DNA from: a virus
Virus genome (UHGV): UHGV-0094592
Strand: one strand, 5' to 3'
DNA length: 13,829 bases
Every line of letters starts with the position of its first letter. The stretch's first letter is position 1. The position numbers and the translations under genes are program-made. The notes beneath the pieces are model-generated. The model saw only the letters and a list, made by a program, of their open reading frames with translations. It did not search any database and was not told where the DNA came from. Positions 1 through 13,646 of the stretch are shown here, piece after piece.

Positions 1-1409
1 CCATGGTCAGAGCCGAAGAACAGGAAGTTTTTACGACCCAGACTGACCGCCCGCAAGGCATTTTCAGCGATGTTGTTGTCGATTTCCACCCAGCCATTAC
101 TGCAGTACACGTTCAGGGCCTTCCACTGTTTCAGTAGGTATGCGAACGCTTTTGCCGTATCCGAGTGACGCGACAGTGTTTTCATCTGTTGCTGTATCCG
201 GTCATACAGTGACTGCATCAGTGGCGCGGCTCTTGCTTTTCTTGCCGCCAGACGCTGTTCTGCTGAACATCCCCGGACTTCTGCCTCGATGGTATACAGT
301 TCACCGATACGCTGCAGGGCTTCCGTGGTGATGTCGGTTGGCACTCTTGCATGCACATCGTGGATTTTTCTCCGGGCATGGGCCATACACGCAGCTTCCG
401 TTATTCTGCCGGATTCGTATAACGCCCGGTAACCACCGTAAGCATCTGCCTGAAGCACACCGCTGTAACCGGCTAGGTGATTCTGTGGATGGATACCTTT
501 CCGGTCCGGGCTGTACGCGAACCAGACCGCCGGGGGCATCTGTGAACCGGCGTTACGGTCATCACGGACATAGACCCACAGCCGGGCAGTTCTTGTTTTA
601 CCACTGCCCGGCTCCTGGACCGGAACGGGGATATCATCCGCATGAACTTTACCGGGCATCAGTACATACTGGCGCAGGACGTCATACAGCGGCTCCAGCA
701 GTTCAGCAACGGCACCGGTCCAGCGACCCAGTGTGGCACGGCTCAGCTCCACGCCCTGACGACGGTATATTTCTGACTGGCGGTATAACGGCAGATGGTC
801 TGCATATTTTCCAGCGACAACATGGGCCAGAAGCCCCGCTCCGGCATAACTGCGTGCAATGGGTTTTGAAGGCACCGGAGCCTGCACGATATGGTCGCAC
901 CGGCAACAGGCCAGTTTCGGACGTTGTGTTTCGATAACCTTAAAGGCGCTGCTGATAAGCTCCAGTTGCTCTGACACATCACATCCCAGAGAACTGAGTT
1001 CGCCACCACAGGCAGGACAGCATTCCTCTTCCGGCCGGATAACCCGGGTTTCTCGGGGAAGTGAGGCCGGTAACGGTTTACGGGCTGAAGACTGGCGCAG
1101 TGCAGATGGCAGTGCCGGGTCATATTGCTCACCCAGCGTTTCCGCCATTTCTTCCTGAAGTGCGCTGATTCGCTCCTGTGCTTCCTGTATCTGTCGTTCG
1201 GTTTTTGCGCGAAGTTTTTCTGAGCTTTTACCGAACTGCATGCGCTGCAGTTTTGCAATCAGCGCCTTCAGCCGGTTGATTTCGGAAGCATAAGCCGCCA
1301 CCCGCAGTGAGAGCAGGCGGTTATATTCGGCCATCTGGCGGATGGTGTCCTGTTGCGTCTGCAACAGCGCCCGCAGGCGGGCATTCTCATGAGCAAGTGA
1401 GGTGTCCAT
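1..1409 (-). CDS. tnpC: IS66-family transposase TnpC (orf3), 5' 469 codons; 3' end lies beyond the left window edge
   Basis: Uninterrupted minus-strand frame from ATG at 1409-1407 to the window edge (codon phase 5..3); absent from the ORF track because there is no in-window stop. Translation starts [25 protein letters not shown] and contains a CPACGG...CCRCDH zinc-finger-like motif and the conserved IS66 transposase core ending ...[13 protein letters not shown] at the edge. RBS GTGAGGA lies just upstream. Confidence 0.9.
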
Positions 1410-1428
1410 ATCCTCACTTTACAACGGG

Positions 1429-1776
1429 TTATATACGGATTCCAGCGCGTTCTGTTCGTTTCGGGTGCTTCCAGTTGATACCTTCAAGAAGCATAGATAA
1501 CTGAGCCGGAGTAAGGTGAACCTTTCCATCGCGGGTGACCGGCCAGACGAAGCGGCCCCGTTCCAGGCGTTTGGTGAAGAGGCACAGTCCGTCGCTGTCA
1601 GCCCACAACACTTTTATCTGGTCACCCCGGCGTCCGCAAAAGATGAACAGATGCCCGGAGAACGGGTCATCCTTCAGGACGTTCTGAACTTTTGATGCCA
1701 GGCCGTTAAAACCATTTCGCATATCGGTAATACCGGCAACCAGCCAGATACGCGAACCGGCAGGGAGAGATATAAT
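1429..1776 (-). CDS. tnpB: IS66-family TnpB (orf2); conserved N-terminus begins at a non-ATG codon
   Basis: ORF track gives 1429..1722 (MRNGFNGLASKVQNVLKDDPFSGHLFIFCGRRGD...), but the same frame continues upstream without a stop as ISLPAGSRIWLVAGITD-MRNGFNGL, matching the IS66 TnpB N-terminus as I recall it. The only codon at the conserved start position is ATT (1776-1774), overlapping the tnpA TGA stop. Confidence 0.75.
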   Translation of the reverse strand: MISLPAGSRIWLVAGITDMRNGFNGLASKVQNVLKDDPFSGHLFIFCGRRGDQIKVLWADSDGLCLFTKRLERGRFVWPVTRDGKVHLTPAQLSMLLEGINWKHPKRTERAGIRI

Positions 1777-2387
1777 CAGTGGCTGCTCCCTTTCATTTCG
1801 CGGATAAGTGTCTGTAATAACGCCGGCGTCAGTTCACCTTTCAGCCTGAGAGTTCCGGCCGGCAGAACCAGCTCACAGCACAGACTGTCGGGCGGTGTAT
1901 TTATCTGCTCAGGTTCCTGTGCGGGTGCCGGGATTTTATTATCCGGCTCCGGCGTTAACGTCACGGGAAGTAGCGATGTTTCATGTTCGCCGGGCGGCTG
2001 CAGGCCGCCGTTACGCCAGAGATGCCGCCAGTTAAAGAGCAGGTTATCGTTGATTCCGTTCTCGCGAGCTATTTGTGCGACACAGGCACCGGGTAAAAGA
2101 GTTTGCTGAACAAGTCTCCATTTAAACTCCTGTGAAAATCGGTTCCGGCGGTTTTTCTCTGTTTTCACAGTCTGAGTTACTGTCGGGGCTGAAGGGTATC
2201 GCCCCGGGAAAAGAGCCCGGGCCAGTTGCATGCAGGAATATTCACCGGAAAGAGGCCAGTCAGCGAATATCTGGTGAAATCGCCTCACCAGAGAAAAAAT
2301 GGCGGTTTTGCTGACACCGGTCTGCGCAGAAATGCGCGGGTACGACAGTGACTCGTCAAATCTCAGTTGTAGCACACGCAGGATCAA
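1776..2387 (-). CDS. tnpA: IS66-family accessory protein TnpA (orf1) with a predicted N-terminal HTH; start codon uncertain (TTG at 2387 or downstream)
   Basis: 203-codon minus ORF directly upstream of tnpB. HTH-like segment ISAQTGVSKTAIFSLVRRF and the conserved IAREN-GINDNLLFNWRHLWRNG motif typical of IS66 orf1. Confidence 0.8.
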   Translation of the reverse strand: MILRVLQLRFDESLSYPRISAQTGVSKTAIFSLVRRFHQIFADWPLSGEYSCMQLARALFPGRYPSAPTVTQTVKTEKNRRNRFSQEFKWRLVQQTLLPGACVAQIARENGINDNLLFNWRHLWRNGGLQPPGEHETSLLPVTLTPEPDNKIPAPAQEPEQINTPPDSLCCELVLPAGTLRLKGELTPALLQTLIREMKGSSH

Positions 2388-2420
2388 TTCCGGATTATCT
2401 GCCAGTACCGCCTTTTGTGC

Positions 2421-2453
2421 GTAAGCGTCAACGGAGCACCGTATTGACGCTTA
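2421..2453. repeat. IS66-type terminal inverted-repeat-like sequence (GTAAGCGTCAA...TTGACGCTTAT), internally palindromic
   Basis: Plus strand reads GTAAGCGTCAACGGAGCACCGTATTGACGCTTAT. IS66-family ends characteristically start GTAAGCG. It sits between the tnpC 3' fragment stop (2451-2453) and the tnpA start. Confidence 0.6.
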
Positions 2454-2636
2454 TTTATTGGTGAGTACTACGTTCCATGGCAGGAGTTCGCCAACTCGGT
2501 TGGAAGGCCATTCCGGCAGTACGCTCAGAATATGGCGCAGATACGCTTCCGGATCGATACCGTTCAGACGGCAGGTGCCGATCAGCCCGTACAGCAGTGC
2601 TCCACGCTCGCCGCCGTGATCGCTACCGAAGAACAC
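2451..2636 (-). pseudogene. Detached 3' fragment of an IS66 transposase (TnpC C-terminal 61 codons)
   Basis: Translation VFFGSDHGGERGALLYGLIGTCRLNGIDPEAYLRHILSVLPEWPSNRVGELLPWNVVLTNK is the C-terminal tail of IS66 TnpC. Its first residues (FFGSDHG) duplicate the last residues of the tnpC copy cut by the window edge. Homology stops abruptly near 2637. Confidence 0.85.
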
Positions 2637-2699
2637 GTAGATGATATGACCTTTATATACTCACTATAGCATTGGTGGGATATTCCAGAGGAGGTCATC

Positions 2700-2954
2700 A
2701 TGCATTCGGAAAATATTGCGGCTTACGTCGGGCTGGATGTGCATAAAGAAACGTTGGCGGTTGCTATTGCTGCACCTGAACGGCTTGGCGAAGTTCGTTA
2801 TTATGGTACGATTAACAACGAAGCCCAGGCTGTACGTCGATTATTTCAGAAATTGCAGGGACTTTACGGAAACATTCTTTCCTGCTATGAGGCTGGCCCC
2901 TGTGGTTTTGGGCTATATCATCAACTCACGATATTTATAATTAAATGCGCATAA
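2700..2954 (+). pseudogene. IS110-family transposase, N-terminal fragment (84 codons, truncated)
   Basis: MHSENIAAYVGLDVHKETLAVAIA...CYEAGPCGFGLYHQL carries the IS110-family N-terminal signatures (GxDxxK and CYEAxG). Strong RBS GGAGG 7 nt upstream. Full-length IS110-family transposases are several-fold longer as far as I recall, and this ORF ends after only 84 codons. Confidence 0.75.
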
Positions 2955-3005
2955 CTTATTGAATTTAACCAACAAACATCGCTGCAAATAACGTTAAAAA
3001 TCGCA

Positions 3006-3030
3006 AATTAACTACACCATTAACTACACC
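3006..3030. repeat. Island-boundary direct repeat, left copy (AATTAACTACACCATTAACTACACC; tandem 12-mer ATTAACTACACC x2); candidate att/arm site
   Basis: Perfect 25/25 identity to 13622-13646; imperfect homology continues about 45 bp to the right of both copies. Confidence 0.75.
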
Positions 3031-3521
3031 GTTCGGTGCACTGTATGCAACAATGCGGAACAAATAGACACAAGCGACGGGCTATACCGTTATCATTTTC
3101 CGGCTATCCGCCATGAAGCTGGTGGATGATCACGGATAAACCGTTATGGAAGTCCCCATATCGGCATCATGCCCACCAGCGAGATTAGTTATCTGGTTGC
3201 TGATGGGAGGCTGACGAACCTCGATGCTAGGGTGCGCAAAACTAGTGAGACCTTTTTTCTCTGCAACAGGCCCATAATTCGCGTTTTCTTTGTCTGCCGT
3301 AAGGTGGGGGATTTTTGGCGGATCCAGCAATGGCGCGGATTTTGTGATTTTTTATAGATAGACCTCATCTATCAATCCCGTGCACACCTTCCCAAAAAAA
3401 GTTTTCGAACCTGCGGCGATGTGAACAAGGGTAGGCGGGCGGTCCCATAAGCAATGAGGTGTAGGGATTTCTATCCCCCTGGGGGTATTAAACACCACCC
3501 GATTTAAATACCGTCTTTTTT

Positions 3522-3556
3522 GTCACTGTGTGTCACTCTCCGTCACGGTATGTCAC
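3522..3556. promoter_or_regulatory. Four helically phased GTCAC repeats (10-bp period); candidate protein-binding array
   Basis: GTCAC at 3522, 3532, 3542 and 3552, immediately downstream of the 93-aa gene stop (3563). Confidence 0.45.
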
Positions 3557-3562
3557 CACAAG

Positions 3563-3844
3563 TTAACGTCGTAACCGTTCCGGCTTCTTCCAGTGGTAAG
3601 TAATTTTTTCTTTCTCTTGGTACATCTGCACGCGGCGACGGTACGACAACATCTCCAGAACTCTGGCGCGTATGTTGCGCATATCCACGCCGTTAAGCTC
3701 GATACCGTCACGGCGCATCACCTCAGCAACAACACGCACATAATTTTCAGCGGTCACGCTGTCCGGCTGCGTGGCCTGTTCGTCAGCCTGCTGGCTGATT
3801 CCGGTAACGCGGCGGATTAATCGCAGTATTTCGGCTTCTGTCAT
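3563..3844 (-). CDS. Hypothetical protein (93 aa) downstream of TerS; possible packaging accessory factor
   Basis: ORF with RBS GGGGG 4 nt upstream of the ATG (3844); basic C-terminus. No recognisable family from sequence alone. Confidence 0.6.
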   Translation of the reverse strand: MTEAEILRLIRRVTGISQQADEQATQPDSVTAENYVRVVAEVMRRDGIELNGVDMRNIRARVLEMLSYRRRVQMYQEKEKITYHWKKPERLRR

Positions 3845-3917
3845 TGTGCCCCCATCGCTCTGATAGCCTGGTGTCGTCAGGTCCTTCCTGGAATTATGGC
3901 CCGTTACGGGGCGGCGG

Positions 3918-4460
3918 TTACTCGCCTTTGTTCTGTAGCAACTTCTCAGGCGCGCTTCCGGTAGTTTCCATCAGGTAATCAGCCAGTATCTGTGGCAGGT
4001 TTTCGTCAAGTCTTGCACATGCGTTACATGCTTTGGCTATTTCCCTTTTTAGTTCATCCAGCATATACGGCCTTATATCGGGAAAGCGCCTTTGCATTGT
4101 GAGCGGGAGGCTGTCCATGATTGATGAAATCTGACTCGCTAGTTTTGAAATCGCGTAGATGCAAAACTTTGTATCAATCACCTCGCCGCGTTCGCGCTCG
4201 TTTTTAAGTTCCTGCGCTTCCGCCTGTGCTGTCAGCAATCTGATTCTTACGCGTAAAAGTTCATCATCATCAATCTCGCCTTTGTCGTTTGTAAGCTGGT
4301 TAATTGCATTGTTAACCCTATTGTCTATCACGCTAGCAACATCATAAAACGCCTCACGGCCTTTACGCTCAACGGGAGTTACTCCCCACTTGTCGAACGC
4401 TGTCGCACTTACGCGGCAGCTTTGCGCCATAGTTTTTTTGTTCATCAGGTGCGATTTCAT
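3918..4460 (-). CDS. Terminase small subunit, phage lambda Nu1-like
   Basis: Translation (...RLLTAQAEAQELKNERERGEVIDTKFCIYAISKLASQISSIMDSLPLTMQRRFPD...) matches lambda gpNu1 as I recall it (RLTRAQADAQELKNARDSAEVVETAFCTFVLSRIAGEIASILDGLPLSVQRRFPE). ORF track start is GTG 4472; ATG at 4460 has RBS GGGGA and ATG at 4445 aligns with the Nu1 N-terminus (M..NKK). Confidence 0.85.
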   Translation of the reverse strand: MKSHLMNKKTMAQSCRVSATAFDKWGVTPVERKGREAFYDVASVIDNRVNNAINQLTNDKGEIDDDELLRVRIRLLTAQAEAQELKNERERGEVIDTKFCIYAISKLASQISSIMDSLPLTMQRRFPDIRPYMLDELKREIAKACNACARLDENLPQILADYLMETTGSAPEKLLQNKGE

Positions 4461-4472
4461 CAATATCCCCAC

Positions 4473-4637
4473 TTAGTTAAGGTTTCAGGTTGGTGTGTTG
4501 GTGTTATCTTTCCCTTTTTATTCATAGAGATAGAGCGAAAAACAAAACCACCACCACCAACCCGAAAAGGCTCATAAATAGCGAAAATCCGCAAGGTCGC
4601 CGCCCCGTAACGGGTCCATATGCCGGAAAGGACCCGT
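4473..4637 (-). other. Lambda-type cos site (cosQ-cosN-cosB) with exact cosN 12-mer GGGCGGCGACCT (minus strand, 4605..4594)
   Basis: Minus strand reads ...TTTACGGGTCCTTTCCGG-CATATGGACCCGTTACG-GGGCGGCGACCT-TGCGGATTTTCGCTATTTATGAGCCTTTTCGGG. Lambda right and left ends read ...TTTACGGGTCCTTTCCGGTGATCCGACAGGTTACG / GGGCGGCGACCTCGCGGGTTTTCGCTATTTATGAAAATTTTCCGG. It lies directly upstream of the Nu1-like gene, as in lambda. Confidence 0.85.
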
Positions 4638-4660
4638 AAAAAAAGCCGGATTTCTCCGGC
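4638..4660 (-). terminator. Rho-independent terminator after the capsid operon (stem GCCGGA/TCCGGC, 7-T run on minus strand)
   Basis: Hairpin 4645-4660 followed on the minus strand by TTTTTTT (4644..4638), 6 bp downstream of the 137-aa gene stop. Confidence 0.7.
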
Positions 4661-4666
4661 CTTATG

Positions 4667-5080
4667 TCAGATGGTTTTCAGTATGCGATCGACGTCGCCT
4701 TCATCGCCCTGGTTTCTGCCGTCGTATGCCATGCCGGGTGATACGGCTTTCGGGCTGTGCATGTCCATAAAGTTTTCAAAGGCTGCGGTAAGCTCCGGCG
4801 CAACCTTCGGGCGCTCCTGCTCTATGGTCATGTTCAGGATTTCACGAGCATTATCGACGCTAATACATGGCACGTTTGCCATTGCACGTAACAGCGGCTG
4901 ATAGTCGTTATGTTCATGAAGCGCCATAATCGCATCAGCGCGCGGCTTGTCCTGCTCTTCCAGTTTGTTGAGTTGATATACGGCCTCGTAGGTTGATAAA
5001 CCTCTGTCAGCCATTGCCCGCGCTTCTGCTTTAAATTTACTCGCCAGCGGTAGCGCCATGATGCTTTCATTCGTTGCCAT
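4667..5080 (-). CDS. Hypothetical capsid-module protein (137 aa), acidic; possible scaffold or size-determination factor
   Basis: ORF with RBS AGGGGAA 3 nt upstream of ATG 5080; sits between the gpD-like gene and the terminator/cos. No confident family assignment. Confidence 0.6.
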   Translation of the reverse strand: MATNESIMALPLASKFKAEARAMADRGLSTYEAVYQLNKLEEQDKPRADAIMALHEHNDYQPLLRAMANVPCISVDNAREILNMTIEQERPKVAPELTAAFENFMDMHSPKAVSPGMAYDGRNQGDEGDVDRILKTI

Positions 5081-5092
5081 CGTTTCCCCTGC

Positions 5093-5428
5093 TTATCGCG
5101 CCAGCGGCTGAACGGATACGCCAGAACCCGCAAAGGCGGCGCATTTTTTCGCGTCAGTGTCGGCGCTCTCAGGCCAGTTTACGGCGGCGATATTAAATAT
5201 CCCCGTCTTGTAACACTGTGCTGATTTCTGCTTTGACGTGTCCACGGGGTACGAGGTCAGATAAACAGCCTTCCCAGATTCCTGACCATCCCACGGCTTA
5301 AACTCGCCATTGTCCGCCAGCATCAGCGGGGTAAATTCCTGAATAACGCCAGCATCAGCGGCAAAATGTACCAGCGTCGTGGATACCTGCTGACTGCCTG
5401 CAAATAACTCAATGTATGGAGTGTCCAT
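5093..5428 (-). CDS. Head decoration protein, lambda gpD-like
   Basis: ...FTPLMLADNGEFKPWDGQ...YKTGIFNIAAVNWPESADTDAKKCAAFAGSGVSV versus recalled lambda gpD ...MTPLMLDTSSRKLVAWDGT...[44 protein letters not shown] 4 nt upstream of the ATG. Confidence 0.8.
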   Translation of the reverse strand: MDTPYIELFAGSQQVSTTLVHFAADAGVIQEFTPLMLADNGEFKPWDGQESGKAVYLTSYPVDTSKQKSAQCYKTGIFNIAAVNWPESADTDAKKCAAFAGSGVSVQPLAR

Positions 5429-9925: not shown

Positions 9926-10127
9926 AATCGCCCCCGCGTAACTGGTCTGCACTAACACCCGATTTAGTGAGCATTTCAGAAAATCCCGCAAGAGTGCTGA
10001 TAAATTCGTTTTCCATTAAACGGCACTGGCATTTAACCCGGCCTTTTTCCAGATACACCAGTACGCGCCCCGTATAATCTGACGGCACATTCAGCACTAC
10101 AGATAAGTGCGCTTCATTATTATTCAT
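9915..10127 (-). CDS. Hypothetical protein (70 aa)
   Basis: Strong RBS GGAGGTG 7 nt upstream of ATG 10127. Confidence 0.55.
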   Translation of the reverse strand: MNNNEAHLSVVLNVPSDYTGRVLVYLEKGRVKCQCRLMENEFISTLAGFSEMLTKSGVSADQLRGGDYAK

Positions 10128-13621: not shown

Positions 13622-13646
13622 AATTAACTACACCATTAACTACACC
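13622..13646. repeat. Island-boundary direct repeat, right copy (AATTAACTACACCATTAACTACACC), immediately upstream of int
   Basis: Identical to 3006-3030. Confidence 0.75.

Follow-up and report, generated by a model that had tools for sequence, protein, structure and literature searches.

A probable deletion-truncated second cos site beside the terS homologue of the Escherichia coli satellite EcCIDi14, and the inverted cos pair of related islands

The window, i.e. the whole stretch of 13,829 nucleotides that was analysed, contains an E. coli PICI, and window positions 3300-5200 show 100% identity to part of the chromosome of E. coli 'clone D i14'. The insertion point lies inside an IS110 transposase gene, and this position identifies the element as EcCIDi14, which is a reference Gram-negative PICI in Fillol-Salom et al. 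(2018, ISME J, PMC6092414). All the genes of the island are on the minus strand. The integrase gene is followed, according to Pfam and RefSeq comparisons, by those of AlpA, a RepA-type helicase, SSB, a lambda E-like capsid protein, a D-like decoration protein and a 137-aa protein, then by a cos site (cos1), a 180-aa Nu1-family protein and a 93-aa protein (Table 1). The Pfam matches on the island are int, AlpA, AAA_25/RepA, SSB, capsid E and D, and Nu1, and the element thus has the int, alpA, replication module, unidirectional genes, size of approximately 10 kb and cos site of the Gram-negative PICIs. Pieces of the interrupted IS110-family transposase gene border the island at 2700-2954 and past position 13622. 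On the left (1-3000), remnants of IS66 and other IS elements form a patchwork, and the clone D i14 record shows an IS630 and a CbtA/YeeU toxin-antitoxin region farther out on this side.

The 180-aa protein is a full-length homologue of the terminase small subunit TerS, with scores of 1.3e-23 against Pfam Phage_Nu1 and 1.3e-52 against PHROG 57 (residues 1-172). No similarity to RppA was detected by BLASTP and no meaningful match was obtained among the PDB sequences; no related loci were found when the protein was used as a query against the genome contig collection. The terS gene is flanked by two conserved genes. The 93-aa gene on the left shows a DNA identity of 88-92% across related islands, and the DNA of the 137-aa gene on the right is 100% identical to that of one RppA-type island up to cosN. 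The C-terminal part of the 137-aa protein matches PHROG 53 (head maturation protease / scaffold; profile positions 494-567 of 583, E = 1.5e-9), and the island may encode a Nu3-like scaffold beside its E-like capsid and D-like decoration proteins.

Table 1. Position of the features of EcCIDi14 in the window and of the inverted segment in two related islands
Feature	Position	Strand	Basis or remark
93-aa conserved gene, last island gene, left cassette flank	3563-3844	-	PHROG 1561; homologues in all related islands
Probable truncated cos2 (cosQ-like heptamer, spacer, cosN left half, 8 cohesive-end bases)	3879-3916	+	cos2 of relatives and of EcCICFT073
cosQ-like AGGTCCT	3879-3885	+	6/7 bases of GGGTCCT, correct spacing to cosN, which is about 25-30 bp in functional lambda-type sites
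cosN left half CCCGTTACG	3900-3908	+	Match to lambda-type cosN
Top-strand nick position	3908/3909	+	Retained in the remnant
Cohesive-end bases 1-8 of 12, GGGCGGCG	3909-3916	+	ACCT (last four) absent
Deletion junction	3916/3917		182 bp missing relative to O157-type islands (L002 12359-12540)
terS homologue, 180 aa, full-length, Nu1 family; cargo of the cos-bounded cassette	3918-4460	-	Pfam, PHROG, RefSeq WP_000835284.1
Island-type cosB of cos1 (cosB1)	4480-4593	-	Sequence motifs
cos1 (complete cosN, left half-site TTACG, spacer, cosQ)	4594-4635	-	lambda cos in the phage DE3 record
12-nt cohesive end GGGCGGCGACCT of cos1	4594-4605	-	lambda-type cosN
cosQ GGGTCCT of cos1	4629-4635	-	Comparison with lambda cos
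137-aa conserved gene, right cassette flank	4667-5080	-	Homology
Integrase gene	13621-12371	-	Pfam int
Inverted cosB1-terS-cosB2 segment, island L129	7152-8030
Inverted cosB1-terS-cosB2 segment, island L132	about 2650-3530

cos1 is located upstream of terS, its cosQ-cosN part matches the published cos1 of the PICI EcCICFT073, and it is predicted to be a packaging site of the functional type. Its cosB contains a (GGT)n tract at approximately 4548-4563, i.e. +43 to +58 from the cohesive end (motifs (GGT)n / CACCAACC), at a position corresponding to that where Murialdo & Feiss placed R3-PICI. An inverted motif, TTTCAGGTTGGTG / CACCAACCCGAAA, was also seen in this cosB at 4483-4495 / 4555-4567. 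In the cos1 of EcCICFT073, the equivalent place is occupied by CACCACCACCAC, the reverse complement of the motif of the TerS-type cosB1, and the presumed recognition element appears flipped between the TerS-type and the RppA-type islands.

On the other side of terS, the 17-mer CCCGTTACGGGGCGGCG at 3900-3916 (plus strand) is an exact inverted copy of positions 4598-4614 (minus strand) of cos1, without the final ACCT, as claimed in the first-pass annotation. It is directly followed by GTTA where ACCT is expected, the ACCT and the right half-site being replaced by GTTACTCG, and the complement of the terS stop codon (3918-3920) lies 1 nt past the repeat. The 17-nt copy is accurate; its extent had been understated, the inverted repeat covering 37 nt (3880-3916 against 4598-4634, 81% complementarity, 681 nt between the arms) and including a cosQ-like heptamer. 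The Nu1-like gene is therefore bracketed, as had been proposed, by inverted cos-derived sequences. Taken alone, the 17-mer could be a chance similarity in a GC-rich motif, as it has at least 120 matches in 596 Gb of unrelated genomes, mostly GC-rich ones. This reading has a negligible probability: with up to 3 mismatches, the 17-mer has 3 matches in the window for a shuffle mean of 0.05, and 3 or more matches were reached in none of 200 dinucleotide shuffles of the window. Judging from the homology extending beyond the 17-mer and from the position and junction conserved in relatives, its likeness to cos is not due to chance. The sequence CCAGTTACGCGGGGGCG at 9929-9945 (minus strand) has 3 mismatches to the 17-mer, lies within or near small regulatory genes and is probably fortuitous.

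The comparison with related islands indicates what is missing at this place. In the islands of E. coli O157:H7 (L002) and JNE181771 (L003), 256 bp separate the 93-aa gene from terS, vs 74 bp in the window, and these 256 bp contain a complete plus-strand cos site (cos2). Positions 3859-3916 of the window (58 nt) align collinearly with the intact cos2 of these O157-type islands and with that of two RppA-type islands (L004 and L005), in which a complete inverted cos is found at the same position. The collinearity with L002 and L003 stops after base 8 of the cohesive end and resumes 1 nt before the terS stop, with the loss of 182 bp: the last four cohesive-end bases (ACCT) are gone, together with the right half of cosN, I2 and a cosB bearing R3-, R2- and R1-like elements. 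In L002, these 182 bp are collinear with the I2-R3-I1-R2-R1 of lambda; the collinearity with lambda also covers cosQ-cosN-I2, the R3-like element being at +49 (lambda +49) and the R2-like element at +108 (lambda +109). The 'recombination scar' considered earlier is thus a deletion scar, left by the reduction of a complete second cos. In the O157:H7 island, the cosQ-to-cosN parts of cos1 and cos2 (L002 12320-12362 and 13218-13260) are identical over approximately 45 nt and form a perfect inverted repeat, unlike the window and EcCICFT073, where the spacer alleles of cos1 and cos2 differ, a pattern suggestive of exchange or gene conversion between cos1 and cos2.

The RppA-type islands link this site to the cos2 already described. 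The cassette protein of L004 is RppA (4.5e-31 against RppC, PDB 6HLK; first 50 aa identical to the published RppA), and the two cos sequences of this island match the published cos1 and cos2 of EcCICFT073 (Mol Cell 2019, Fig. S1A, PMC6739421), OCR noise in the published sequences being allowed for. Since the cosB2 of the RppA-type islands shares 91% identity with the cos that a lambdoid prophage of E. coli O55:H7 carries between its lysis genes and its terS and terL, directly upstream of these two, the intact cos2 is, on sequence grounds, a captured phage-type cos. In 35 genomes (e.g., L130 7152-7400), the RppA-type islands have instead of this phage-type cosB an island-type variant at cos2 (GGTTGTTG ... 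CAACAACC), which resembles the cosB1 of the terS-type islands, as if the adjoining terS had been lost.

Because positions 3859-3916 match the cosQ-cosN-left part of the published cos2, the segment 3879-3916 of the window is a truncated homologue of it. Like the cos2 of EcCICFT073 (PMC6092414, PMC6739421), it separates the last island gene from the 3' end of the packaging-specificity gene and is inverted relative to cos1, and both share the same cosQ-spacer-cosN-left sequence, TCGTC[G/A]GGTCCTTCCTGGAATTATGGCCCGTTACGGGGCGGCG, the only departure being a G to A change at 3879, the first base of cosQ, which distinguishes the remnant from lambda and from every intact copy. Unlike the cos2 of EcCICFT073, the remnant ends after base 8 of the cohesive end and has no cosB, and its neighbour encodes the 180-aa TerS homologue and not a 144-aa RppA; the published site works both on a plasmid and in its island, whereas the remnant is predicted to be non-functional. 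EcCICFT073 itself was rejected as the identity of the window, its RppA of 144 aa (c1503) and its location in the genome being different. With the lambda cos, the remnant shares the cosQ heptamer (6 of 7 bases), the cosQ-cosN spacing, TTACG and GGGCGGCG, and its intact relatives have R3-, R2- and R1-like elements at the positions of the lambda cos. In contrast to the lambda cos, it possesses only 8 of the 12 cohesive-end bases, without ACCT, second nick site, I2 or any of the TerS-binding R elements downstream of cosN, and it faces away from any terminase gene. The phage-type cosB, which would allow the use of the helper terminase without Rpp, is also deleted in the window. The remnant thus corresponds to the cos2 known from the E. 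coli PICIs (Fillol-Salom 2018, 2019), which had not been recognised in the first-pass annotation, its truncated form being new.

The likeness to cos could also be incidental to a terminator or regulatory hairpin acting between terS and the 93-aa gene, as CCCGTTACGGG is quasi-palindromic and a consensus scan gives a hairpin followed by a T-run at 3913-3926 (plus strand). We consider this very improbable: the hairpin is antisense to the genes, the scan count of 3 compares with a shuffle expectation of 1.7, the RNA fold of the coding strand is not significant (z = -0.83), and the homology to cos2 spans 58 nt, cosQ included. On the coding strand, no Rho-independent terminator was found at the remnant by the consensus scan. 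The small hairpin itself (GGCG-GTTACT-CGCC plus a T-rich run) was created by the deletion junction, is antisense to terS and matches the terminator consensus only weakly.

The frequency of the different arrangements was determined in 5,426 complete E. coli genomes. An intact cos2 was found beside this terS type in 484 genomes and beside rppA in 63, the exact truncated junction in 76, and an 11-bp gap between the genes without any cos2 in 108, these counts being inflated by clonal sampling, with O157:H7 dominating the intact class. cos2 is thus absent or truncated in about a quarter of the terS-type islands, indicating that it is dispensable across islands. Among the matches listed for the truncated junction, 31 of 60 show 100% identity to the window, and for most of the others the value is 95.7%. 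In IMG/VR, 69 contigs share a cos2-type 27-mer: 26 have terS with two complete cos sites, 18 have rppA with two complete cos sites, 9 have two cos sites and no intact gene between them, 11 have the truncated junction, and 5 have terS with only cos1 in the region, some of them at contig ends. The occurrence of the junction in both the complete genomes and the IMG/VR contigs shows that the 17-mer is conserved in related elements, whereas its lack of conservation would have refuted the reading of the first-pass annotation. A relative of the island was also seen in strain EC28 (L006 1-2200), inserted in a prophage portal gene beside an S49 peptidase gene and devoid of cos2; such helper-embedded satellites have been described (bioRxiv 10.1101/2022.07.18.500453).

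The truncated junction of one island, L128, is base-for-base the same as that of the window on a different backbone, with insertion at the yejO site, another capsid module and another cosQ allele at cos1. The terS alleles of the two islands are 96.9% identical, and both are approximately 87% identical to the alleles that adjoin an intact cos2. Since the junction is identical in at least two backbones and the terS alleles form a clade, these data point to one old deletion which has since spread. The 37-nt remnants of the window and L128 differ by a single base (G to A in cosQ), for approximately 1 difference expected at a neutral divergence of approximately 3%; the conservation therefore argues neither for nor against a retained function, and does not discriminate between neutrality and weak constraint.

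The origin of the deletion itself may be considered. It could be the repair product of a real terminase cut at cos2 rather than a slip of replication or recombination: the cosQ-side end would have lost 4 nt of its 12-nt overhang, been filled in and been joined illegitimately beside the terS stop. The left breakpoint, inside the cohesive end after base 8, and the little or no microhomology observed with L002 and L003 as parents are in agreement with this route. We nevertheless regard it as unlikely, an L129-like parent giving a 3-nt GCG microhomology at the right breakpoint (TGCTGCG/GTTAC), which fits ordinary slippage, and statistics being impossible for one event. This proposal concerns only the origin of the vestige and is compatible with the explanation that we favour.

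Taken together, these data make it very probable that the segment 3879-3916 is a vestige of the cos2 of a known PICI, truncated by deletion. In this family of E. coli PICIs, the packaging-specificity gene, a TerS homologue or RppA, lies between two inverted lambda-type cos sites with their cosB sides facing inward: cos1 upstream of the gene with an island-specific cosB, and cos2 beyond its 3' end with a phage-type cosB. In the lineage of EcCIDi14, a 182-bp deletion, apparently single and old, removed bases 9-12 of the cohesive end together with the bottom-strand nick site, I2 and the entire cosB2, ending 1 nt short of the terS stop and leaving cosQ, the left half-site and 8 bases of the cohesive end. 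According to the lambda literature, a lambda-type cos functions only if its two nick sites are present at a distance of 12 nt and if TerL is positioned by a TerS that occupies cosB. The remnant allows no staggered double cut and has no TerS-binding site, so that the island would be packaged from cos1 only. We infer that it is inert for the initiation and the termination of packaging because it has neither the second nick site nor cosB and, moreover, is oriented the wrong way for complexes that started at cos1.

An alternative is that the remnant has been kept as a functional half-site, cosQ and the left part of cosN being bound or nicked by the helper TerL and serving as a decoy, as a pause or termination signal, or as a recombinogenic nick site near terS. 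Six of the seven cosQ bases and the top-strand nick position are retained, single-strand nicking by the helper is conceivable, the junction persists in 76 genomes and at least two backbones, and, downstream of 3879, 36 nt are shared without any change by the window, L128 and the intact cos2 copies. In spite of this, such a role seems improbable. There is no cosB and hence no TerS anchor, which is critical for the accurate nicking of cosN in the lambda literature, and even the remnant is absent from 108 other genomes; besides its orientation, already mentioned, the only substitution falls in cosQ and the degree of conservation is that expected under neutrality. The decoy or regulatory terminase-binding site put forward in the first-pass annotation thus finds no support in a remnant that has lost cosB, the second nick site and the right half of cosN.

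Returning to the vestigial cos2, the published experiments on EcCICFT073 (Mol Cell 2019, PMC6739421) are informative on its loss. In that island, cos1 is the RppA-responsive site where the terminase is redirected, the deletion of cos2 raised the transfer mediated by lambda and phi80, and transfer was abolished only by the double deletion of cos1 and cos2. By analogy, an island should lose cos2 at no cost or with a slight benefit, in line with the roughly one quarter of terS-type islands in which it is absent or truncated. The stump alone would therefore matter little, and cos2 seems expendable, in agreement with the gain of transfer published for its deletion. The use of helper-type cos sites for packaging by a helper terminase is common to these PICIs and to the satellites of the SaPIbov4 / SaPIbov5 type, and two putative cos sites have been reported in SaPIbov4; the latter satellites belong to a different phylum, their sequences are unrelated, and neither inverted pairs nor truncation are reported there. 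The island of the window likewise encodes a full-length TerS beside cosB1, its island-specific presumed recognition site, as in the SaPI strategy where a satellite small terminase (TerS-S) redirects the helper TerL. Unlike the TerS-S pac system, the window has a cos system, and the redirecting role of its TerS is putative.

The organisation of the intact pair in the relatives bears on why some PICIs carry two cos sites. In every pairwise comparison, the flanks of the cassette are homologous (87-95% on the left and 91-100% on the right), while the interior, from cos to cos, is either of the terS type or of the rppA type, the two types being mutually unalignable. Between the window and the RppA-type island L004, the right side is 100% identical over 2.3 kb, including the 12-nt cohesive end, and the divergence begins at the next base. 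Conversely, L128 and the window have the cassette in common and differ from 4 nt upstream of cosN outward. Between the window and L004, only the cos1 breakpoint is sharp (100% identity on the right, 88% on the left), which does not demonstrate a strict replacement of the cassette by two crossovers, one at each cos, for this pair. In nine IMG/VR contigs (L134, L136, L138, L145, L148, L149, L164, L180 and L200), two complete inverted cos sites are separated by approximately 530 bp, which hold a 3' remnant of rppA and two different cosB regions (e.g., L136 1615-2150); the cassette appears degenerate or 'empty' in these contigs. The comparison of related islands that had been recommended, asking whether terS is a swappable cassette, thus reveals terS-type, rppA-type and empty alternatives on homologous flanks.

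The cassette is also found inverted. Using a chimeric query with a flipped cassette, full-length matches were obtained in five complete E. coli genomes, so that inversion is rare (5 of approximately 670 terS-type islands). In the two of these five that were examined (L129 and L132), terS is on the strand opposite to all the other island genes. In L129, a block of 942 nt aligns in reverse with L002 at 92.7% identity, whereas the alignment of both flanks is forward. The cosQ alleles specific to each flank have kept their place in the inverted islands, and the two cosBs have swapped sides. Because alternative interiors are present on homologous flanks and the inversions are precise, the inverted cos pair behaves as a module boundary, and it would delimit an exchangeable and occasionally invertible module. 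The gene-cassette boundary suggested earlier is in this respect partly supported, for the intact cos pair of the relatives.

Homologous recombination within 24-50 bp of identity is the conservative explanation for both the exchange and the inversion. The segment does not resemble the invertible switches of the Hin/Gin/Fim type: the inverted repeats are the cos sites, no recombinase is found in or next to it, and the only recombinase of the island is the integrase, approximately 8 kb from the cassette. A more speculative view, which we hold to be possible though rather unlikely, is that the inverted cos pair constitutes a cassette excisable by the terminase, able to re-anneal either way or to be swapped between co-resident islands. 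As the cosB sides face inward, a cut at both sites would free a fragment with a 5'-GGGCGGCGACCT overhang at each end; the flanks would carry the complementary overhang and the two ends of the fragment would be identical, allowing it to re-anneal in either orientation or to be replaced. If true, an excisable cassette would explain the terS, rppA and empty alternatives, the breakpoints at cosN and the five precise inversions, and the truncated cos2 of the window would represent a locked state, with no cutting, flipping or swapping at that end. We found no paper in the literature searched that addresses how cos1 and cos2 are oriented to each other, or their inversion, although other papers may exist.

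For engineered PICI 'drones', these results suggest that cos2 is removable and that an intact pair may cause instability. More generally, in a widespread family of E. coli satellites, the module for packaging specificity occurs between inverted cos sites with at least three alternative contents and in both orientations, the exchange points being within approximately 20 bp of cosN. This organisation bears on the way in which satellites come to use another helper terminase.
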